A stretch of DNA of 41,846 bases, from the NCBI GenBank assembly GCA_947626095.1, contig CANQQV010000013.1, positions 1-41,846 of the forward strand, written 5' to 3'. How positions within the stretch are numbered: the stretch's first letter is position 1; each line of letters opens with the position of its first letter. Made by a program: the position numbers and the translations under genes. This DNA is from an uncultured Bacilli bacterium (GTDB lineage Bacteria > Bacillota_I > Bacilli_A > RF39 > UBA660). The notes beneath the pieces were generated by a model, which was not told where the DNA came from, made no database searches, and saw only the letters and a list, made by a program, of their open reading frames with translations. Below, one piece after another: positions 6,182 through 41,846 of the stretch.

Positions 6182-6850
6182 TTACCAATATTTTCCATGA
6201 TAATATGTATTATTTTCTAATTCATTATAATAGTCGATGTCTTCTTGACGACTTTGATGATTTTGTCTTTGCTGCTCTTTTAATTGTTCTTCAATATTTT
6301 TATTTTCGTCAGGATTATCGTTATCATCATCATTATCATCATCTTTACCATCATCACTATCATCATCTTTACCTGATTCTATTTGCTCTTCTAACTTTTT
6401 AATTTCTTCTTCTAACTCTTCAGCTTTACTACTCTTTCCATTATCATCGTCTTCGGATGCACAATTATCTTCATATAAAATATTTTTAGCTTTTTTTAAA
6501 ATACTTAAAGCTTCTTCAGGCTTGGTTTCATTAATTGTTTTAATATAAGATAAAGATAAATTAATTCTGATATCACAGACACGATCTTCTTTGGGATGTT
6601 TAGTTAAAGAAGTTTCATATTTAGTAATAGCTTCATCATATCTTTCTAAACGATATAATAAATTACCATGATTATAATAAACGATATATGGTTCATTAAT
6701 ATTTAAAAAATATAAAGTATTAATTAAGTTATTGTCATATTTATTATTTTCATAATCTTTAATAATTATTTCATTAAAGAAATATGTAGAACCTAGTTTA
6801 AGGAGAATTAAAGATAAAAAGATAATAATAATTAGTATAATCTTTTTCAT
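6182..6850 (-). CDS. TPR protein with acidic linker (BatC-like)
   Basis: N-terminal TM; YYNHGNLLYRLERYDEAITKY TPR; Asp-rich tract; last gene of the MoxR/VWA operon. Confidence 0.75.
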   Translation of the reverse strand: MKKIILIIIIFLSLILLKLGSTYFFNEIIIKDYENNKYDNNLINTLYFLNINEPYIVYYNHGNLLYRLERYDEAITKYETSLTKHPKEDRVCDIRINLSLSYIKTINETKPEEALSILKKAKNILYEDNCASEDDDNGKSSKAEELEEEIKKLEEQIESGKDDDSDDGKDDDNDDDNDNPDENKNIEEQLKEQQRQNHQSRQEDIDYYNELENNTYYHGKYW

Positions 6851-7794
6851 AAGCTCCTCCTTTTATATTCATTATATAGTAAGAATAGTAAGATTAATAA
6901 AGGAATAGTAAAGATATAGTATATATCTGTATATGATGAGATATCTGATTCTGTTCCAGTTGTATTTATTGATTTTTTGACTTTTTTTAAGGTTTTATCT
7001 ATATTACTTTGTTTGTTCATGTAAACATAATCAACACCTAGATCTTTAGCAATATCTTCTAAGTTATCTTCATCTAATTTAGAGATGGCTTTTTTATATG
7101 GCCAAGTTGAAGTATCTTCAACATATTTTATTTCATTACTATAACCATCATTTTGTTTCATATATCCACCATCTGTAGTTCCATAGCCTAGAACAGCTCC
7201 ATCATCAATGTATTCTTTTAAATCACTAAAGGATTTTAAACGTGAATCATCAGTTATTTCGCCATCACTAATAAAGAAGACTATTTTCTTACGTTTATTA
7301 TCTTGGTTATTTTTTAAGATACTTTCCATATCGTTATGAGGCGTATTAAGTGATGAACCTTTAGCATAGTAACTAACCATTGGCTGTAAAATATCAATTG
7401 ACTCATTGACAATATTATTATCAAAAGTAAATGGTATATCTATTTTAGAGGAATTATTAAAAGTGATTAAAGCAAAACGAGCTCCAGATAATTCTCTAAT
7501 AATATAAGAGCAATCCTCTTTAACGGCGTTTATTCTTTCTGAATTATTTGAACTGTAATCTTCAGCATACATACTTATTGTATTATCAACAACAAATAAG
7601 ACATCTAAGTCATTAACAATGATATTAGAATTGCCAGAAGAAAACATTGGACGAAGATTGATTATAAATAATAAAATAATAATAAAAATCTCATAAATAG
7701 TTACTCTACTCTTTTTCGTAATAAGAACAATGATAATTAAAAAGATGGAAATAGGCAACATAAGCCAGATAGGAATTATAGGGAATAATCTCAT
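6847..7794 (-). CDS. VWA-domain membrane protein (BatB-like)
   Basis: MIDAS motif DNTISM, FFISDGE, GYGTTDGG; N- and C-terminal TMs. Confidence 0.85.
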   Translation of the reverse strand: MRLFPIIPIWLMLPISIFLIIIVLITKKSRVTIYEIFIIILLFIINLRPMFSSGNSNIIVNDLDVLFVVDNTISMYAEDYSSNNSERINAVKEDCSYIIRELSGARFALITFNNSSKIDIPFTFDNNIVNESIDILQPMVSYYAKGSSLNTPHNDMESILKNNQDNKRKKIVFFISDGEITDDSRLKSFSDLKEYIDDGAVLGYGTTDGGYMKQNDGYSNEIKYVEDTSTWPYKKAISKLDEDNLEDIAKDLGVDYVYMNKQSNIDKTLKKVKKSINTTGTESDISSYTDIYYIFTIPLLILLFLLYNEYKRRSL

Positions 7795-8795
7795 GATATC
7801 ACCTTCTTACTTAATAGAATTAAAGTAAAGATGGAAACTAATAAAATAACAAAAGGAATAGTTGGCGTATCAACTTCTTTACGTTGAGATTCTTTTTTGA
7901 TCAATGATTTACTAGTTTTTTCAATATCATTAACTATATTTTTAACTGAGGATGTTGTGGCATCATAATACTTACCATTAGTTGTGGCAACAGCTTTTTG
8001 ATAGTTTTCTTTTTCTTTGACAAATTCTGGACCTAAACCATAAACTATAACTTTTTCCTTTTTACTTATAGTAGCAGCTTCATCTAAAGTTAATAATGGA
8101 GTACCAGCTAGAGCATTATCAGTAGTAAAGATAATAATTCTAGTACGATCTTCCTCTAAATTAGAAAAACTATAAACACATGATGCTAGGCCATCACCAA
8201 TTAATGAAGAACCTTTCTTATCATTACCCTCTAAAGTACCACTATTAATATAATTAACGGTAGTTAAATAATCATCTTTTTCAAAGATATTCATATTACG
8301 ATCATTACTATATTCAATGGCTTTTTTTATCTTTTTTAATGAATCAGTTACATAGTTATAATCATCAGTTAACGGAACTAATAAAACAGATGAAGTATTA
8401 AAGATGGAAATACCGAATCTTTCCCCTTTTAGTGATGATACTGTTTCAATTAAATTATCAACTAATTCATAGTTTAATTCATCTACTGAAGCTGAGACAT
8501 CCATACATAAAAAGATATCACGATTATATTCTTCATCCGTGGTTATTTCAACATTATATGGTCTAGCAAGTAAAAGGCAGGAAATAAGCATAGCTATAAG
8601 GCAAAATATTTTAGATGATAATAAAATAACTTTATAAAGTTTCACTCTTTTTTTAAAGTATGGTAACTCTTTGACAAATGAAGTATTAGCAACTTTAGTT
8701 CCATCTTTATAAGAGGTTTTTCTCGTTTTTAAAATGATGGCAATAACAATAATAATTAGACCAATTATTAGGATATATGGGTATCTCATTTCCAT
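7791..8795 (-). CDS. VWA-domain membrane protein (BatA-like)
   Basis: LLARP, MIDAS motif DVSAS, PLTDDY, IGDGL, FTTDN. Confidence 0.85.
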   Translation of the reverse strand: MEMRYPYILIIGLIIIVIAIILKTRKTSYKDGTKVANTSFVKELPYFKKRVKLYKVILLSSKIFCLIAMLISCLLLARPYNVEITTDEEYNRDIFLCMDVSASVDELNYELVDNLIETVSSLKGERFGISIFNTSSVLLVPLTDDYNYVTDSLKKIKKAIEYSNDRNMNIFEKDDYLTTVNYINSGTLEGNDKKGSSLIGDGLASCVYSFSNLEEDRTRIIIFTTDNALAGTPLLTLDEAATISKKEKVIVYGLGPEFVKEKENYQKAVATTNGKYYDATTSSVKNIVNDIEKTSKSLIKKESQRKEVDTPTIPFVILLVSIFTLILLSKKVIS

Positions 8796-9247
8796 CTGGC
8801 AACTACCTCTCTTGTCTTGGTTATAGAAGAGATAATATCTCCTTTAGAATCTTTAGCAAATTCAGGATGGTAATATTCTTCAACTAAAGTTGATAATATA
8901 GGAAGGTTAAGAGTTTTAATATCACTTAAAGTGCAGTTTTGAACTTTAATACCAGTTACTTCATAAACAAAGTTTCTAATTAACTTACTCAATTTTTGAT
9001 AAGCCAAGCGAAGACTTATTTTATTTTCATTAACAGCTATTAAAAGATTATTTATCTCTTGTAAATATTTATTTTTTATATCATTAATATTTGGTGGTCT
9101 TACAATAGTAATTTGTTGGACTGGTTTAGGTTTACGATTTAGAATGATAAGAACAATTGATAAAATAACAATAAGAATGATTATAAAAATAATTAATGGT
9201 AAAAAAGAATAAGAAAACATATCTTGTAAATCAAGAGAAGTTGGCAT
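8786..9247 (-). CDS. Single-TM protein of the MoxR/VWA operon
   Basis: TM plus helical domain, overlapping both neighbours; usual position between DUF58 and VWA genes. Confidence 0.65.
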   Translation of the reverse strand: MPTSLDLQDMFSYSFLPLIIFIIILIVILSIVLIILNRKPKPVQQITIVRPPNINDIKNKYLQEINNLLIAVNENKISLRLAYQKLSKLIRNFVYEVTGIKVQNCTLSDIKTLNLPILSTLVEEYYHPEFAKDSKGDIISSITKTREVVARWK

Positions 9248-10106
9248 ACTTGTGACTTTCTAATAATTCAATTATTTTAGGGTTTATTTCTTGTAAACTA
9301 GAAATAGTTACTAAACATATTTTATTTTTTCTTAATCTTTCTTTATTATATTTATAGATTTGTTCTTTTGTTTCTTTTTCCATTTTATTCAACTTCTTAT
9401 CTTTTAAAAGCATTGTAGGAATATATTCACTACTATCTAAATCAAAAATATTTTCACCAAACATATAAGCATCATTAATATTAATAAATAAAACATCATT
9501 TTGCATACTTAATTCTTTAAGTGTTTTATCTGTTATAGAGTTCATACCTTTTAAATCCGTAATAACAAAAATAATCATTTTCTTTTTGATATTACGCGTT
9601 ATAAAATGAAGAGTTTTTTCTAAACCTTCGTTATTAACTATAAGAGCATTTTTATCATATTCAGTTAGATATTCTTCTAGATTATATAAGTTATATTTAA
9701 ATTTTTTAAATATAATATTATCGTTTTGTTTATAGAGCATACCTATATAGTCATTGTTTTTTATAGCTAAATAACCTAATGTTCCAGCAGCGTATAAAGC
9801 AATATCTTTTTTTAAATCTTGATGATCTGTTTGACCATTCATTTTAATTCCGGTATCCATAACAAATAAGATATTATGTTTCTTTTCGGCAATGTACTGT
9901 TTAACTAATAATGTATTATTACGCGTTGATGATTTCCAATCGATATCTTTAATATCATCATTAATAACGTATTCTCTTAAGTTTTCAAAGTTCATACTTT
10001 TACCACGATAGACAGATTTGTAAGTTCCATCTAGAATGTTATAAGTTTTACGATTAGAAAAGATTGAAATATTAGCTCTTATCTTATTTATATATTTTAA
10101 GTTCAT
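9231..10106 (-). CDS. DUF58 domain protein
   Basis: GKSMNFENLREYVINDDIKDIDWKSSTR is the DUF58 signature. Confidence 0.9.
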   Translation of the reverse strand: MNLKYINKIRANISIFSNRKTYNILDGTYKSVYRGKSMNFENLREYVINDDIKDIDWKSSTRNNTLLVKQYIAEKKHNILFVMDTGIKMNGQTDHQDLKKDIALYAAGTLGYLAIKNNDYIGMLYKQNDNIIFKKFKYNLYNLEEYLTEYDKNALIVNNEGLEKTLHFITRNIKKKMIIFVITDLKGMNSITDKTLKELSMQNDVLFININDAYMFGENIFDLDSSEYIPTMLLKDKKLNKMEKETKEQIYKYNKERLRKNKICLVTISSLQEINPKIIELLESHKYANFS

Positions 10107-11128
10107 GGTGTTGCAATAGCTCCTATGATTGTATCTATTACTTGTTCAACACTAACATTATCAGCAATAGCTGAGAAATTTAAAGATATACGATGTCTTA
10201 AAACACTATATCTTAGAGCTTTAACATCATCTGGAGTTACATAGGTACGACCACACATTAAAGCTAAAGCTTTGGAACATTCCATAAAAGCAATGGTACC
10301 ACGGGGACTTGAACCTAAATTAATATACTCAGCTATTTTAGGATTGATATATTTACTTGGATTTCTAGTTACTTCAATTATTTGAGCGATATATCTTTTG
10401 ATTGAATCATCTATATAGACTTTCTTAGTTATATCTTGAAGATATGATAAATCATCTAAGGTAAGAATAGCATTGCCTTCAGTAAAAATATTTTTTTCAA
10501 TACGATTTAAAACTTCAATTTCTTCATCCATAGTTGGATAAGTTATCTTTTCTTTAATTAAGAAACGATCTAATTGGGCTTCAGCTAAAGTATAAGTACC
10601 TTCTTGTTCAATAGGGTTTTGGGTAGCAATAACAATAAATATTTCGGGCAATTTATATCTTTTGTTATCAATAGTTATTTGTCTTTCTTGCATGGCTTCT
10701 AAAGTTGCACTTTGCGTTTTAGCACTTGATCTATTTATTTCGTCTAATAAAACAAAGTTGGCATAGATAGGACCAATTTTAGTTTCAAAACTATTATTAG
10801 CATAATTAAAGATTTGCGTACCAATAATATCACTTGGTAATAAGTCTGGTGTACATTGAATACGAGAGAATTTACCATTAACAGCTTCAGTTATAACTTT
10901 AGCAGCAGTTGTTTTGGCAAGACCTGGTACTGACTCTAATAAGATATGACCATTAGCCATTAAAGATATTAATAAAGAACGTTGTAAATTAGTTTGACCG
11001 ACAATACGCTCTTTATAATAATTAAAGATTTGATTAATTATGTTTTGGGCTTTAGTTAACTCTTCTTGAGTGATATTACTACTTTGCACCATTGTATTTT
11101 GATTATTTATTTGATTATTATTATTCAT
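10103..11128 (-). CDS. moxR: MoxR-family AAA+ ATPase
   Basis: HILLESVPGLAKT, RIQCTPDLLPSD, LLDEINR, ATQNPIEQEGTY, AQLDRF, LGSSPRG, VLRHRI. Confidence 0.95.
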   Translation of the reverse strand: MNNNNQINNQNTMVQSSNITQEELTKAQNIINQIFNYYKERIVGQTNLQRSLLISLMANGHILLESVPGLAKTTAAKVITEAVNGKFSRIQCTPDLLPSDIIGTQIFNYANNSFETKIGPIYANFVLLDEINRSSAKTQSATLEAMQERQITIDNKRYKLPEIFIVIATQNPIEQEGTYTLAEAQLDRFLIKEKITYPTMDEEIEVLNRIEKNIFTEGNAILTLDDLSYLQDITKKVYIDDSIKRYIAQIIEVTRNPSKYINPKIAEYINLGSSPRGTIAFMECSKALALMCGRTYVTPDDVKALRYSVLRHRISLNFSAIADNVSVEQVIDTIIGAIATP

Positions 11129-13835: not shown

Positions 13836-13860
13836 AAAAAAAGGTCAATTTGACCTTTTA
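13836..13860 (-). terminator. Intrinsic terminator overlapping a stop codon
   Basis: AAAAGGTCA-ATT-TGACCTTTT; stop codon at 13858-13860. Confidence 0.7.
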
Positions 13861-15021
13861 GAATGCTTTGCTTGGAGTTCTTTTTTCAAAGTACTGCATT
13901 GGTAATTCTAATGAATGATTTTTACAATAATTAAATAGCCATTGAGAACATTGTTGATGATGATTTAAATATGTAGCTTCTTCAGTAAATAAGTATGAAC
14001 GACTAAAGATACATCTTAGAGCTTGACTAATTGAATTTCTTTGTCTTACATATTCTCTAAAGCTTATTAAATCACTACCACGATAGTATATAGCACTATC
14101 TCTTTCGATAAGTTTAAGGGCTTTTTTATTGTGGATATAACGTGGTAAATTATGGAAAAATCTTACCATATTATGTGCTGGTTTTTGCTCTTCATAGTCA
14201 TAAGTAGGAACAATTTGATATTGACGAGAGAATGTGGCAGCGCTTTGGGTAAATTTTTCATCGACATCCGCAAAATCAATTTCAGAAATAGTTTGCATAG
14301 AAGTATAAACTGATGGTCTAGAAAAAATAGATGGTAGCGGTATCAAGCCAATGCTTTCATTAGATTTATCTTCTGGTGGAAGAATTTCAATATCAGGAAA
14401 TACAACTTCACCTAATAATTCTTCATTGATTGTTTCAATCGGTGTTATTACTTCTTCTTTAGGAGTGACAGTTGGTTTTTTTATTGTACGCTTTTTAGGT
14501 TGTGGATTTAGATTACGAGTGTTATAACTTATTTCACGCCTTATTGATTTCTTTAACTCTTTTAATTCTTCAGCTGACAAATTAGCTAAATTATTATATG
14601 ATTCATTAATAGCATTGATATTGCTTTCTCTTTTTAAGACTCTTAAATATCGAGCTATATCTTTTCTAAAAGTAGTAGTTTTTTCTAAGTAAGTATCAAT
14701 TACAGATTCTTCAACATTACGATTTTTTAAGATATTTTTAATTTTATTAATATAATAATTTAATTTCTTACGGAGATTGATAATGTCCTCTGAAGATGTA
14801 GCATTTACTATTTCTTGCGTTAAATCTGTAATTAACTCTTGAGCTTCAATTACTGCTTTATATTGTTTGGCATCAAGTTCAGAAGCATTAAGAATTTGAA
14901 CAACATCTACTACACTTTCATTAAAATTATTTCTATTACTAGATAAGCTTTCTTTTACCATTTTTAGTAAAGCAAGATGAGCTTGATTCATTTTATCAAT
15001 ACGTTTATTAATTTTCTTCAT
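13858..15021 (-). CDS. Hypothetical protein (helical N-terminus, K/P/E-rich linker, C-terminal domain)
   Basis: Long ORF; ATG 15021 follows AGGTGA; no recognised motif. Confidence 0.7.
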   Translation of the reverse strand: MKKINKRIDKMNQAHLALLKMVKESLSSNRNNFNESVVDVVQILNASELDAKQYKAVIEAQELITDLTQEIVNATSSEDIINLRKKLNYYINKIKNILKNRNVEESVIDTYLEKTTTFRKDIARYLRVLKRESNINAINESYNNLANLSAEELKELKKSIRREISYNTRNLNPQPKKRTIKKPTVTPKEEVITPIETINEELLGEVVFPDIEILPPEDKSNESIGLIPLPSIFSRPSVYTSMQTISEIDFADVDEKFTQSAATFSRQYQIVPTYDYEEQKPAHNMVRFFHNLPRYIHNKKALKLIERDSAIYYRGSDLISFREYVRQRNSISQALRCIFSRSYLFTEEATYLNHHQQCSQWLFNYCKNHSLELPMQYFEKRTPSKAF

Positions 15022-15130
15022 TTGTTTCACCTTTTTCTTTAGTTTTTAATTCATCATCCATTCCTTGTAAAATGGATAATAATTCAAGTAAAGAGCCATT
15101 ATCTAAATCTTCTAAATTAATAGTATCCAT
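15008..15130 (-). CDS. Unannotated 40-aa acidic protein MDTINLEDLDNGSLLELLSILQGMDDELKTKEKGETNEEN
   Basis: Manual translation; AAAGGGGAG RBS; TATAAT near 15157-15162; its stop overlaps the start region of the next gene. Confidence 0.65.
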   Translation of the reverse strand: MDTINLEDLDNGSLLELLSILQGMDDELKTKEKGETNEEN

Positions 15131-16214: not shown

Positions 16215-16227
16215 AAATACTTTTCCT

Positions 16228-16327
16228 TTCTATCTTTATAATTTAATTATATAAAAATCTAATTGGTTTTAAAATTAATTTCTAATTATTTGACATAAAA
16301 AATATGCTTATGGTAAGCATATTAATT
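16228..16327. repeat. Direct repeat copy 1 (terminator + promoter intergenic unit)
   Basis: Hand alignment to 18815-18917 gives 14 mismatches and one 3-nt gap over ~100 bp. Confidence 0.85.
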
Positions 16328-16546
16328 ATTGTTAAGTTCCTTATGAAAACTTTCCATAACTTGAAGAGCTATATCCATATCTAATTCTTCAATTAATGTT
16401 CCATTATCTTCCTTAACGATTAACCAATCATTACTATTATTAAAATCCATTATTAAGTAATAATATTGATTGTCATAAAATGTTTTATTAGTAACAACGA
16501 ATTTTTGATTATTTTTAATTATTAAAATATCTTTTAAATTATACAT
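16322..16546 (-). CDS. 74-aa hypothetical protein, cassette partner
   Basis: GAGGGCG RBS; 20 bp downstream of the 748-aa gene; its stop lies in the repeat's terminator. Confidence 0.7.
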   Translation of the reverse strand: MYNLKDILIIKNNQKFVVTNKTFYDNQYYYLIMDFNNSNDWLIVKEDNGTLIEELDMDIALQVMESFHKELNNN

Positions 16547-16566: not shown

Positions 16567-18813
16567 TTAATGCGATATTCCTAATATTTCATCTTCAAAG
16601 TTTTTTGGCTTGATAATTTCAATTTGTTTTTTTCCTTCTAAGACATTACGTAATCGATCTAGTATTGCATTAACTATATGGCAACCATAATGATTGGAAA
16701 GTAGAGGTGAATAACTATCACTTGAGTTAGAATTATTAACTGTTTGCCCAACAATTTTTTGGCCTTTATCTACTAATTTATCTATATATACACTTAGTTT
16801 GTCTTTTGGTTTAGATGAGAAACCATTATAAAATCTATTTTCACTATTATTATCAATAACATTCATCACATTAAGAACACGAGGATTATCCTGTTGAATC
16901 GTATCTTTTAAATGATCTTCTTGAATGGTTGTTATAATATTAAACAACATATCTACTTTATTATCATTACGATACAAAGCAGTCATGGCTTGCATCACCA
17001 TCATTGAATTAGTTAAATTATGTTTATAAATATTTTTATCCTTACCAAATAATTCAAACAATTCCTTAGCCATAATACTAACTCTATACTTAGTACTAAA
17101 TTCTTCTTCAAACGTAACGTTTGTTGGATTATTATTGGTTCCTAATAAATAATCAGGAACAAATGAATTCTTATCACGGTTTCTGTTATATATATAATAA
17201 AAGTAGGCAATCCAAAATTTTAAATTAGTACCTTTAGACTCATATGCTTTTTTATATAAAGTCAAAGTTGCTAGATATTTTTGCTTCCATTCTATTCTTT
17301 TTGGGGAATAGTTATGATAATGATTTAAATTTAAGTTATATTTTCTTTCTAAATAATTTCTAACAGTTTCGTTGTTTTCTAACTGATAATTTAAAACATC
17401 GTCAATTTTGTCTGGATATTCTAAAATATAAGATGATAAGGTATCTGATTCAAGCATATAAGAAATAGCACTTTCCTTTGTTGGTAACGAATACCTATAT
17501 TGATAAATCTGAACTAAATTACTAAAATTATTTCCTGCATAGGCTCTTTCAAATAAATATAGTTGACCTTTTCTTTGTTCAAAGTTTGGCGTTTTAGTAT
17601 AAAGACTTTCATTGAAAATATCATTATTTAAAAATTCTTTTAAATCTTCCAGTTTAATAGAAATGTTTATATATTTCTCATCATCGTCATCTAATTGATC
17701 CCAAAATTCGATTGTATCACCATTAATATTTAAACGCCCATGAGAAACAGAATTCCTTAAGTGAGTTATTAAGACCGGAGTTGGATAATAAAGATTATTA
17801 TCCGTCTTAGCCATTTTATTTGATATACAAAAAAATGATTCGCTAGAGTTTTGATTACCATTAGATAGTTGACTGTCATTAACTAATCTTGAAAAACTAC
17901 TGCTTAAGGTTTGAGCTTCTTGATTATTTAAATATAAAAAATAATGTTTGTTGAAAAATTTATCTTTTAATATTTCTTCTTCAGTAACTTGATTAGTAAT
18001 TTTAACCTGAAATTTGGAGCAATCAAAAAAGCATTGTTGTTTTTCTAAATATTTATCTAATACACTTTCTTTATTATAACTTAGCATTAAAGATAAGCTA
18101 ATAAGGACTTTAAGATTGGCAAAATCTTGACTTAAAGATAATAAGTTTTTAAATTCTATTTTTTCAACAGCTTTTGATGGTGTTGCAGCTTTATTTGGAG
18201 ATTCTTGAGCTTTTTTGAATTGGGTTACATCATCTTTTATGGCTTTATATGCAGCGAATAACATATGTACTAGTTGATTTGAAGAATTTTCGTGATTAGC
18301 TAAACTTTTTTCTAAAATGGAGATTAAACGATCTTTAGAAGCAACAATTGTTAGGTCTGGTTCTGATGTTGGACGATGTTTACTTATTAGAGTTAATAAA
18401 CCTCCATCTTCGTCGTAGTTTATCGAACCAGAGCCATGAGCAAATATATTTCTCATATGAGTAAAAATTTTTTTGTTATGATCACCCTCATTTGTGTTGG
18501 GGTGATCATCAGTTTGCATATTAAAACCTCTTGGATTATCTCTTAAAACAAAATAATCAACTACTTTTTTATCATCATCCATTGTAGCTGTTTTCCTTTT
18601 ATTATTTTTGTTAGTATCTTTATACTCAGGAATATTGTTTATGTTTGAAACGGTTTCTTTATCAGCAATGATAGCAATTGTAAATAATATAAATAATTTG
18701 ATATCTTCAAGTTCAGAGGGAGTTATACTTGAAAAATCTTTTATATTAAGACAGTTACAAAACTTTTTTATAATAGGATTTATATAATCTTTATAATTTT
18801 TCATTATTATCAT
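16567..18813 (-). CDS. 748-aa protein with two HEPN-like RxxxxH motifs (putative RNase/defence effector)
   Basis: IFTHMRNIFAHG (R121-H126) and LITHLRNSVSHG (R353-H358); the second is followed by GDTIEFWD. The start may be ATG 18804. Confidence 0.6.
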   Translation of the reverse strand: MIIMKNYKDYINPIIKKFCNCLNIKDFSSITPSELEDIKLFILFTIAIIADKETVSNINNIPEYKDTNKNNKRKTATMDDDKKVVDYFVLRDNPRGFNMQTDDHPNTNEGDHNKKIFTHMRNIFAHGSGSINYDEDGGLLTLISKHRPTSEPDLTIVASKDRLISILEKSLANHENSSNQLVHMLFAAYKAIKDDVTQFKKAQESPNKAATPSKAVEKIEFKNLLSLSQDFANLKVLISLSLMLSYNKESVLDKYLEKQQCFFDCSKFQVKITNQVTEEEILKDKFFNKHYFLYLNNQEAQTLSSSFSRLVNDSQLSNGNQNSSESFFCISNKMAKTDNNLYYPTPVLITHLRNSVSHGRLNINGDTIEFWDQLDDDDEKYINISIKLEDLKEFLNNDIFNESLYTKTPNFEQRKGQLYLFERAYAGNNFSNLVQIYQYRYSLPTKESAISYMLESDTLSSYILEYPDKIDDVLNYQLENNETVRNYLERKYNLNLNHYHNYSPKRIEWKQKYLATLTLYKKAYESKGTNLKFWIAYFYYIYNRNRDKNSFVPDYLLGTNNNPTNVTFEEEFSTKYRVSIMAKELFELFGKDKNIYKHNLTNSMMVMQAMTALYRNDNKVDMLFNIITTIQEDHLKDTIQQDNPRVLNVMNVIDNNSENRFYNGFSSKPKDKLSVYIDKLVDKGQKIVGQTVNNSNSSDSYSPLLSNHYGCHIVNAILDRLRNVLEGKKQIEIIKPKNFEDEILGISH

Positions 18814-18814
18814 C

Positions 18815-18917
18815 TTCTATCTTTATATTTTAATTATATAAAAAATTGGGTTATTTTGAAATTAATTTCAATTTAATTGACATAATAAAAAATATGCTTT
18901 TAGTAAGCATATTAATT
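18815..18917. repeat. Direct repeat copy 2 (dapA terminator + promoter)
   Basis: Shares TTCTATCTTTATA, TTTAATTATATAAAAA, AAATTAATTTC, TGACATA and AAAAATATGCTTnnnGTAAGCATATTAATT with copy 1. Confidence 0.85.
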
Positions 18918-23856: not shown

Positions 23857-24519
23857 TTATTCAGGATTACCCAATTTTATATCTTTATCTTTTTCTTTAA
23901 CAACTAAAATGCGATCAAATAAAACCATTAAATCACTATAATCAAGCAAGGCATCAGCTTTAACAACAGCATTAATAAATTCATTTTTATTTTCGATTAA
24001 GGAATAATCTAAGTTATATTCTTCTAAACCATTAGTTTTACAGATATAATCAAGTAGTTGTCTTACAAATTCTCTTTCTGTACGACCATTACCTTCTCTA
24101 AAAGGATGAATAATATCTAAGTTAGCATAGAATTCTGTAATAAATTTTAGTAAGTCTTCACGATTATGAATATTAGGTATAGTATATTTTAGACTAGCAA
24201 ATAGTTTGTTTAGTTCAGTAGTTATATATTGCGGCAAACAAAAAGGAATTCGTTTAGAAATGACTTCTGTTCTGATCTCTCCAGCAAATGGATAGATATC
24301 TTCAAATAAAAATTTATGAATAGATTTATAGTGTTCAATATCAAATGTTTGATGACCAGGATCTAAATATAATTTAGCTAGTTTATAGCTAGTAACCATT
24401 CTTTCAGCTTTATTTAGTAATTCTTCATCATCGAGATTAAGTTTATTTTGTAAAACACCACCAGCTCTAGTATATGGTGATTGATAATTTAATATTTCAT
24501 CGATTCTTCCCATAACCAA
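23857..24519 (-). CDS. fic: Fic-domain toxin (AMPylase)
   Basis: IHKFLFEDIYPFAGEIR and the canonical HPFREGNGRTER motif. Confidence 0.92.
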   Translation of the reverse strand: MVMGRIDEILNYQSPYTRAGGVLQNKLNLDDEELLNKAERMVTSYKLAKLYLDPGHQTFDIEHYKSIHKFLFEDIYPFAGEIRTEVISKRIPFCLPQYITTELNKLFASLKYTIPNIHNREDLLKFITEFYANLDIIHPFREGNGRTEREFVRQLLDYICKTNGLEEYNLDYSLIENKNEFINAVVKADALLDYSDLMVLFDRILVVKEKDKDIKLGNPE

Positions 24520-39892: not shown

Positions 39893-40191
39893 AATAATCA
39901 CACTACATATTATATATGAATTATTAAATTAAGTAAACTTTTAATTTAATAAGAAAAAAAGGCGAAAAAATAGTAATAGCTTAATTATATTTTATGTTAG
40001 TTTCAAATTATAAATGCATTGACTTTATTATATAATTATATAATTATGTAATATTAATACTATAGTCGGTAAGCGATATAATTAGTTCCGACAATGTCGT
40101 AAATTGGCGTATAATTTAGCAAAGTTGCCAATACTGATCGGAACATAATAACATTTGTTCTTTTTTATATTGATTGAAAAGGTGATAGATA

Positions 40192-41604
40192 GTGAAAAAC
40201 ATATTTAAAAATAAAAAGTTGATTGCTATTATAGGGGTTATAATAGTTATTTTGGCAATAGTAATTACTTGTATCGTCCTAAATACAAATAAAAAGGAAG
40301 AGGCACCAACTCATAAAGAAGAAACACATAGTATGTTTGTCAAAATCAATCCTTTAGTAAAACTTGTATTTAAATATGAATATGATATATGCAAAGACTC
40401 TACAGGACGTGAATATATCTGTGGAGATGAAATTAATAATGTTATTGATTATGAGCTAATTAATGATGATGCTAAGAACTTTTATAAAGATTTAGACTTT
40501 AAAAATAAAGATTTATATGATGCTTTACTTATGCTCTGCGAAACAGCAGTTGATAATGATATAGTATTTGAAAATTTAGAAATAACGACTGATAGTGATA
40601 GTATAAAAGTCGAACAAATTACAGATTACTTACAAGAAAAATCAAAATATGAAATTACGTATACAGTAAATGTAAATTTTGAAGAGCAGATTGATGAAGA
40701 CAAAATTATAGAAGCTGAAGAAACAGAAAACGAAAGGTATTTAGTAACTTTTGATAGTGATGGTGGTAGTAAAGTAGAAAGTCAAACAATTACTAAAGGA
40801 AACAAAGCATTAATTCCTACTTCGCCAACTAAGGAAGGATACAAATTTATTGAGTGGCAGCTTAATGATAAATACTTTGATTTTAATACCGAAATAACGG
40901 CAGATATAACATTAAAAGCTAAATGGGAAAAAGAAAATACAGGTAATGAACAAACTACTAAACCTAATCAAAATGAAAGCAATAATCAGACGACTAAACC
41001 TAATAAAAATGAAAATAACAATAATAGTCAATCTACTAAACCAAGCGGAAATGAAAATACCAATTCAACAACTGATGCTAGAAAAGGGATAATAAACTTA
41101 AATGATAATGTTTTATATAAATTATCTGGTCCACCATCTTCTGAAGAATATAGGGCTTGGAGAATTAAGGATGTTTGCTTCAATAAAACAATAGCGGAAT
41201 TAAAAGTAATCGATCCTAATTATGATAAAGAAGATTTAGAAGATTCAGCTCATGTATATAAAGATGATACTTTAATAACTAAAAAAATGTTTTTAGGCGA
41301 TGATGCTTTATCTCTCTTATATATATTCCCAGGTTGTAAAGATACAATACCAGTTTCTTATAAAAGTATTTTGGATAATGCAATGGGTTGGAAAGTTCTT
41401 TCAATAGAGGATGATACTTTTGAAGTTAAATTAATCGAGTTAGATGAAAGATACAAATGGGAAGACTATCATCAAGAGATAGATTTTAGTAAATATAATT
41501 TATCAGAGCCAAATCCTTACTCTGGTGGAGGAGGACCGAAAACACCACAACTTTTAACTGAGCAAGTTTGTTCTGAATATCATTTAAAATGTGATAGATG
41601 GTAA
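40192..41604 (+). CDS. Surface protein: TM, RsgI-like domain, InlB B-repeat, low-complexity linker, unknown C-terminal domain
   Basis: GTG start after AAGGTGA; FVKINPLVKL; VTFDSDGGS..PTKEGYKFIEW..ITLKAKW B-repeat. Confidence 0.75.
   Translation: MKNIFKNKKLIAIIGVIIVILAIVITCIVLNTNKKEEAPTHKEETHSMFVKINPLVKLVFKYEYDICKDSTGREYICGDEINNVIDYELINDDAKNFYKDLDFKNKDLYDALLMLCETAVDNDIVFENLEITTDSDSIKVEQITDYLQEKSKYEITYTVNVNFEEQIDEDKIIEAEETENERYLVTFDSDGGSKVESQTITKGNKALIPTSPTKEGYKFIEWQLNDKYFDFNTEITADITLKAKWEKENTGNEQTTKPNQNESNNQTTKPNKNENNNNSQSTKPSGNENTNSTTDARKGIINLNDNVLYKLSGPPSSEEYRAWRIKDVCFNKTIAELKVIDPNYDKEDLEDSAHVYKDDTLITKKMFLGDDALSLLYIFPGCKDTIPVSYKSILDNAMGWKVLSIEDDTFEVKLIELDERYKWEDYHQEIDFSKYNLSEPNPYSGGGGPKTPQLLTEQVCSEYHLKCDRW
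40951..41058 (+). repeat. Three imperfect coding repeats Q(T/S)TKP(N/S)xNE
   Basis: ACTAAACC recurs three times; QTTKPNQNESNN / QTTKPNKNENNNNS / QSTKPSGNEN. Confidence 0.7.
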
Positions 41605-41610
41605 TAAAAG

Positions 41611-41701
41611 CTCATTATTCAATGGAATAATGGGTTTTTATTTGGTTTAAAGTTAAATAAAGATATAAAAAAGACTAAATATTTAAAATTTAGTCTTTTT
41701 T
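41611..41701. terminator. Terminators between the surface protein gene and 5S rRNA
   Basis: CTCATTATTC-AATG-GAATAATGGG plus T-run; AAAAAGACTAAA...TTTAGTCTTTTT (bidirectional). Confidence 0.7.
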
Positions 41702-41713
41702 AGAGCAAAAAAA

Positions 41714-41819
41714 AATCGGCGACTTCCTATTTTTGCTTGCGCTATCTTCGGCGTTTAAGTGCTTAACTTCTCTGTTCGGGATGGGAAGAGGTGTTGCCAC
41801 TTAGCTATCGTCACCAACA
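41714..41819 (-). rRNA. rrf: 5S ribosomal RNA (short form)
   Basis: Reverse complement UUGGUGACGAUAGC...CACCUCUUCCCAUCCCGAACAGAGAAGUUAAGC...CGCCGAAGAUA...AAUAGGAAGUCGCCGA carries the 5S conserved motifs. Confidence 0.95.
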
Positions 41820-41846
41820 AAGGAATTATGTCCTTTAAAAACTAGA

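Follow-up and report, generated by a model that had tools for sequence, protein, structure and literature searches.

A protein with two homologous HEPN-like domains and a conserved small partner gene in an uncultured Bacilli bacterium: a candidate single-chain RNase effector

In bacteria, HEPN RNases have a central place among the effectors of immunity and of toxin systems. They form one metal-independent active site from two HEPN domains. Among the families covered by Anantharaman et al. 2013, pEK499_p136 is a predicted RNase of conflict systems with restriction-modification (R-M), Pgl, ART or Macro neighbours, and Swt1 is listed (Table 1) as having a 'dyad of HEPN domains' (PMC3710099); both Swt1 and Las1, the subject of a preprint, are precedents for paired HEPN units outside CRISPR. 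Prokaryotic single-chain fusions of both active-site halves are little described outside Cas13. In Cas13 itself, two HEPN motifs are present in one polypeptide. Here we analyzed a 41,846-nucleotide stretch of DNA from an uncultured Bacilli bacterium (GenBank assembly GCA_947626095.1, contig CANQQV010000013.1, positions 1 to 41,846; hereafter the window) and describe in it a gene for a 748-residue protein that carries two HEPN-type motifs, each in one of two homologous domains of a single chain, together with a conserved small gene directly downstream. Literature searches on pEK499_p136, DUF1292 and tandem HEPN gave no published description of this family.

The large gene is open reading frame (ORF) P0001 (16567..18813, minus strand; 748 aa), for which the second ATG (M4) is a possible alternative start. 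A regular-expression scan of the protein returned two Rx4H matches and no others: RNIFAH at residues 121-126 (R121..H126; 18436..18453, minus strand), which we call motif 1, and RNSVSH at residues 353-358 (R353..H358; 17740..17757, minus strand), motif 2. They lie 232 residues apart and each is directly followed by a glycine, just as the original prediction, made from the DNA letters and their translations, had placed them. From the composition of the protein itself, 0.52 Rx4H and 0.057 RNx3H matches would be expected by chance.

The family is rare: when 1.84 billion cluster representatives were searched exhaustively with phmmer, no more than 17 proteins reached E <= 0.001. We aligned these 17 sequences and then a set of 25, to which eight genome loci contributed the additional ORFs; the larger set is partly redundant (L004 with P0004, L006 with P0006, L009 with P0010, and L010 with L011). 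The arginines and histidines of both motifs are conserved in these homologues: R353 and H358 are each present in 25 of 25 sequences, as are G359 and H126, and R121 is present in 22. The residue that follows the arginine is N in 18 sequences, D in 6 and H in 1 at position 354, and N in 22, D in 2 and E in 1 at position 122; in HEPN motifs this residue is mostly N, D or H (PMC3710099). Thus, RNIFAH and RNSVSH, with the N/D/H pattern of the family, have the form of a HEPN motif, which is Rx4-6H with a polar residue after the R. Also invariant in the alignment are N247 and E249, which belong to a YNKES motif in the second domain.

We compared the two motif regions with each other by aligning family profiles with hhalign. 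The profile of residues 85-200 matched that of residues 318-420 with a probability of 94.7% (E 6e-8) over 51 columns, a stretch that spans the motif helix, the subsequent strands and the next helix, whereas either domain against the C-terminal region, used as a control, gave 0.1%. The internal domain duplication that had been proposed for this protein is thereby upheld. By eye, the duplication seemed to extend to an N-terminal 'NKE' helix; we rejected this extension, for which hhalign gave only 0.3%.

An AlphaFold2 (AF2) model built on the 17-sequence alignment has a mean predicted local distance difference test score (pLDDT) of 74.5 and a predicted template modelling score (pTM) of 0.74, with fairly confident domain packing; domain 2 modelled alone reaches a pLDDT of 83 and a pTM of 0.84. 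In these models the motifs end helices 111-126 and 345-357, and three strands and a helix come next, which agrees with the beta-rich stretch noticed earlier after each motif. The predicted placement of both motifs at the end of a core helix is that of HEPN proteins, in which the motif sits where helix-3 finishes and the next loop starts, and in Csx1 a beta-hairpin comes right after the motif (PMC3710099). Domain 1 (residues 1-200; 18214..18813, minus strand) is modelled as N-terminal helices, a low-confidence loop (residues 67-110), the motif helix, three strands and a helix. Domain 2 (residues 228-420; 17554..18132, minus strand) is the best-conserved part of the protein and holds both the YNKES motif and motif 2.

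About 390 residues remain past motif 2, in agreement with the original prediction, and most of them make up a mostly helical C-terminal region of about 330 residues (residues 421-748; 16570..17553, minus strand) that is conserved to about residue 560 (E422, F430 and P467 among its conserved positions) and divergent beyond. This region yielded no family or lead, and an Atlas search with it gave no usable match. The LRNVLEG segment that had been pointed out near its end is present (residues 721-727; 16633..16653, minus strand); it is not conserved in the family alignment and is probably a chance occurrence, since it is kept only in P0002, a homologue with 79% identity. The suggestion that the C-terminal region acts as a sensor finds nothing to support it.

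The nearest described HEPN family is pEK499_p136 (PF18736), as had been suspected. Its members and our two domains share the same signature of a helix, R-N-x3-H, strands and a helix, and the namesake protein of plasmid pEK499, which scores 168 bits to PF18736, aligns in register through its ...MRNSVAH... segment. The namesake is a single-domain protein of 166 residues, whereas the protein described here has two such domains and the C-terminal region. In a six-frame search of the genome, the region of motif 2 is the only PF18736 match (14.5 bits). PF18736 annotation is precomputed for P0002 and P0003, and it also appears on the three Atlas clusters nearest to the protein (scores of 0.83-0.86), which serve as a lead only. 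Another link runs through a 192-aa protein at locus L014, from another genome of the same class, which at 27.3 bits passes the PF18736 gathering cut-off of 26.6 bits as a borderline member and also matches three other HEPN families weakly. The domain-2 profile matched this protein with a probability of 93-95% (E 5e-8 to 2e-7), and the C-terminal control profile gave 0%. Judged by sequence comparison, both domains of the 748-aa protein are pEK499_p136-like candidate HEPN domains and are non-members by Pfam's criterion.

The large gene had been taken to stand alone. Instead, a conserved small ORF of 74 aa (16322..16546, minus strand) starts 20 nt past its stop, and the two form a two-gene module. 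The large gene is directly followed by an ORF of 74-104 aa in the window and in 9 of 9 related loci, and in the related loci this ORF overlaps the large gene's 3' end by 4 to about 68 nt. Eight aligned partner proteins are homologous (46% mean column identity). The other neighbours vary between loci and are mostly housekeeping genes, so the conserved unit is the pair. We observed a match to PF06949 (DUF1292) at E <= 1 in five of the eight partner proteins, with those that scored 16.8 to 23.9 bits spanning model positions 6/7-71/72 of 75, and none in the window's own copy, so that the partner is DUF1292-like at a sub-threshold level. Against PADLOC, the small ORF gave a weak match to PDC-M02A only (E 0.0048, 14.9 bits). 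Complex prediction for the large protein and its partner scored 0.27 and 0.17, below the mark of 0.32; made with no controls, it gives no verdict and is not evidence either way. Two of the related loci show irregular copies. At L004:7990-8212, in the genome with the syntenic module described below, the partner frame is conserved and ATA replaces its ATG start. At L008:7623-9639, the large-gene homologue is split into three ORFs (178, 179 and 272 aa) beside an intact partner; either this copy is decaying or the assembly is wrong here.

Elsewhere, the genome that contains the window has four further small DUF1292-like ORFs (L035-L038, on contigs C4, C2, C18 and C10), each of them directly behind a larger gene. 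One follows RuvX in a canonical IreB-RuvX-DUF1292-YceG operon, another is paired with a PP2C-domain protein, and the remaining two, which match DUF1292 more weakly, come after proteins of unknown function. When compared by hhalign, the partner profile matched one of these weaker ORFs, an 81-aa paralogue that itself scores 18.4 bits to PF06949, with a probability of 93.9%; against two canonical DUF1292 proteins of the genome it gave 0.2-0.4%.

The module is patchily distributed. The nine related loci come from species-representative genomes that are all gut or rumen metagenome-assembled genomes, with host labels of Bacilli, Clostridia, Muribaculaceae and Ca. Aphodocola. The large gene is single-copy in its own genome, occurs in 2 of 27 genomes of the genus, and has no full-length match in 200 other genomes of the family. 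In the second genome of the genus (L004), the module occupies a syntenic position in the order sigma factor, 254-aa protein, LemA, dapA, module and TPM gene, with only 37-42% identity between the syntenic copies. We found no 'empty site' in which dapA is directly followed by the TPM gene; genome G144 gave no TPM match, and in G486 (L028), of the same genus, the TPM gene comes directly after LemA without dapA and the module. In a further genome of this genus, TPM-domain paralogues stand in a tandem row of three to four (L027/L031/L032; G482:C4:1542-4730). Sequencing runs that match the DNA are rabbit-gut and gut metagenome runs from two studies, and no RNA run was among them.

Two direct copies of a repeat of about 100 nt flank the module, 83% identical over 98 nt, and they are the only long match of this kind in the genome. 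The upstream copy (18815..18915, minus strand) holds a terminator-like hairpin and U-run after dapA and then a promoter-like TTCAAA-16-TATAAT (18860-18833); the downstream copy (16215..16325, minus strand) holds a terminator-like hairpin after the small ORF and then a promoter-like site before the TPM gene. The hairpins have predicted energies of -7.7 and -8.3 kcal/mol (z -2.75 and -3.54). A simple terminator scan found no terminator in the repeat segments because the stems are AT-rich. The same flanking arrangement is present at L004, and it suggests that insertion or fixation of the module involved a duplication of the intergenic spacer. Only one copy has any sign of a mobile element nearby: at L009:13556-17009, genes for a Mob_Pre relaxase-like protein and a large serine recombinase lie a few kb downstream of the module.

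We then set this module beside the systems that it most resembles. Like Cas13, the large protein has two HEPN-type motifs per chain, so that an active site formed in cis is possible in principle; unlike Cas13, it is smaller and has a protein partner. The absence of a CRISPR array noted in the original prediction holds for the whole 41.8-kb window, in which we found no CRISPR-like array: its direct repeats came to three families of two copies each, and Rfam gave a 5S rRNA as the sole match and no CRISPR family. Sequence searches of PDB with the family profiles matched no chain, Cas13 included, and returned chance-level rows only (lipoxygenase, E 0.34; PrgA, E 0.023). The arrangement of a predicted HEPN RNase beside a small partner in a compact operon recurs in HEPN-MNT, RnlA-RnlB and LsoA-LsoB. 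In the RnlA and LsoA pairs the toxin gene comes first. These HEPN toxin-antitoxin pairs obtain the second HEPN domain by dimerisation, whereas here the domains are duplicated in cis, and Pfam searches of the ten neighbourhoods found no MNT nucleotidyltransferase or RnlB-like partner. Swt1 and Las1, which also pair HEPN units, act in RNA surveillance or rRNA processing in eukaryotes and have other domains fused to them, and a sequence relation to them goes no further here than weak Swt1-like HEPN matches of related proteins. The R-M, Pgl, ART or Macro neighbours of the pEK499_p136 family are absent here, and the partner is the small DUF1292-like protein instead.

A second layout of dual pEK499_p136-like domains occurs in the same bacterial family, in proteins of 527 aa (L003:241-1824) and 610 aa (L015:1396-3228, minus strand). 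These proteins also have two R-[ND]-x3-H-G motifs with strand-like sequence behind each, and the domain-2 profile matched their C-terminal motif region with a probability of 89-92%. Their first motif lies near residues 115-120 and their second near the C-terminus (residue 426 and residue 517, respectively), leaving a spacer of about 300-400 residues. They have no small DUF1292-like ORF behind them and no Pfam match at the thresholds used.

Given these observations, the best reading, to which we give about an even chance, is that the module encodes a dual-HEPN RNase effector in a single chain, together with a small partner that regulates it or serves as its antitoxin. By this account the large gene would yield one chain with two homologous pEK499_p136-type HEPN-like domains and a helical C-terminal region, and the two domains would come together in cis as one RNase site, as HEPN domains do in known HEPN RNases. 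In that site, domain 2 would supply the catalytic half that is obligatory, and domain 1 a half that is partly degenerate in some lineages. The DUF1292-like protein may bind the large protein as a regulator, either an antitoxin or inhibitor, or else an adaptor, and the module behaves like an accessory cassette passed among gut Bacillota with small genomes. Such behaviour fits a role in abortive infection or as a toxin/antitoxin, and a defence or toxin role is plausible because pEK499_p136 relatives occur in R-M and Pgl contexts and the module is patchily distributed. RNase activity, cis pairing, the role of the partner and a defence or toxin function are thus what we infer from the motifs, duplication, residue conservation, partner gene, rarity and distribution described above. 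The single-chain tandem-HEPN RNase of the original prediction keeps its two homologous motif domains and conserved R and H residues, while the fold match and defence context that would go with it were not found.

A number of results weigh against this reading. The whole protein has no informative match in Pfam, PADLOC, NCBIfam or PHROGs and no PF18736 match at E <= 1; the slice containing domain 2 scores 15.5 bits (E 0.015), so that pEK499_p136, although the nearest family, is not reached at Pfam's gathering cut-off. The domain-2 profile, although in register with the pEK499 namesake, matched it with a probability of only 3.5% (E 0.012), and the domain-1 profile matched the L014 protein at only 28-42%. 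The R of motif 1 is lost in 3 of the 25 sequences. The HEPN fold is not confirmed for the two modelled domains, since Foldseek, run with the full model against PDB and with domain 2 against PDB and BFVD, found nothing at E <= 0.001, and since domain 2 is modelled as alpha/beta with seven strands rather than as a plain four-helix bundle. No HEPN or Cas13 fold match was obtained at this level, and the sole Cas13 row (7vtn_A, in the search with the full model) had an E of 2.2 and a template modelling (TM) score of 0.10. With its partner gene placed second, the module departs from the order usual in HEPN-MNT pairs, and PF06949 scores of partner proteins (23.9, 19.3, 19.0 and 16.8 bits) do not reach the cut-off of 24. 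No large-gene match was found in viral contigs, or by tblastn in phage and plasmid records. For the anti-phage role that had been put forward, PADLOC gave no match, and no defence island was recognisable in the window or the nine loci, whose neighbourhoods consist mostly of housekeeping genes.

Some of these same results would be expected under other explanations. The module might encode a housekeeping or conditional RNA-processing enzyme that trims or degrades cellular RNA, with a partner that mirrors the conserved RuvX-DUF1292 pairing of Bacillota. The lack of a PADLOC match, the mostly housekeeping neighbours and the synteny of the module's chromosomal position between two of the genus genomes are all consistent with such an enzyme, as are the IreB-RuvX-DUF1292-YceG operon and the DUF1292-like ORFs behind larger genes in the same genome. 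Nevertheless, the module was not found in 25 of the 27 genus genomes, nor full-length in the 200 family genomes, and therefore cannot be a core function; its neighbourhoods also differ between hosts and its sequence diverges fast, as the low identity of the syntenic copy in the same genus illustrates. On balance we regard this explanation as unlikely. Equally doubtful in our judgment is an inactive or non-RNase HEPN-like scaffold, a regulator or sensor in which the R and H residues bind a nucleotide or other ligand or are structural. Some HEPN families no longer have the whole motif and may be substrate-binding (PMC3710099). Here R121 is replaced by T in two sequences and by S in one, and the large C-terminal region is uncharacterised. 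Set against the scaffold are the invariance of H126 and of R353, H358 and G359, and the restriction of position 354 to N, D or H, which is the pattern of active HEPN RNases (PMC3710099).

The structural results leave room for a third explanation, in which the domains have a new, non-HEPN alpha/beta fold, the R-x4-H-G segments are look-alikes and the chemistry is that of another phosphodiesterase or nuclease. The predicted alpha/beta nature of domain 2, the lack of a fold match to any solved HEPN structure and the sub-threshold PF18736 scores all point in this direction, and the non-significant Foldseek rows for domain 2 against PDB included PLD-type nucleases (NucT and Nuc) and TrmBL2 (E 0.16-1.1). 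Those rows, however, had TM-scores of 0.13-0.16 and root-mean-square deviations of 13-16 Å. The PLD motif is of the HxK type. We rejected a PLD-type reading, as the H that stands two residues before the R is not conserved in the family. The profile similarity of domain 2 to the L014 protein, which passes the PF18736 cut-off and weakly matches other HEPN families, likewise argues for HEPN, and we consider a non-HEPN fold quite improbable.

If the single-chain dual-HEPN effector with its partner is the correct reading, the two-gene module could add a new regulated RNase to the defence or toxin repertoire of small-genome gut Bacillota, a poorly studied group, and might give a clue to the function of DUF1292 proteins. 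A narrower proposal is that the module is a protein-regulated counterpart of the Cas13 design, in which a dual-HEPN RNase of one chain would work independently of CRISPR and be gated by a mini-protein of the DUF1292 family in place of a guide RNA, and we think there is only a slim chance that this is so. Were it true, it would provide the first functional handle on DUF1292, a widespread and uncharacterised family found next to RuvX in Bacillota, and DUF1292 proteins would be small partner subunits that control nucleases.

The window as a whole is AT-rich (G+C about 23-34%), and most of its genes, with few exceptions, are on the minus strand. At 23857-24519 (minus strand), 5 kb from the module, lies a gene for a Fic/DOC-family protein of 220 aa (Pfam E 1.5e-14). 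On the same strand, a gene cluster in the order MoxR AAA ATPase, DUF58, 153-aa protein, VWA and VWA occupies 6847-11128, and a 390-aa ORF without a family match (13858-15030) lies between the TPM gene and genes for ferredoxin-NADP reductase-like and GltD-like proteins. Strand and GC skew change near 40 kb. In the region from 40000 to 41846, the sole plus-strand gene encodes a 470-aa protein with RsgI-like and Listeria-Bacteroides repeat domains, and the 5S rRNA gene is located at 41714-41818 on the minus strand.

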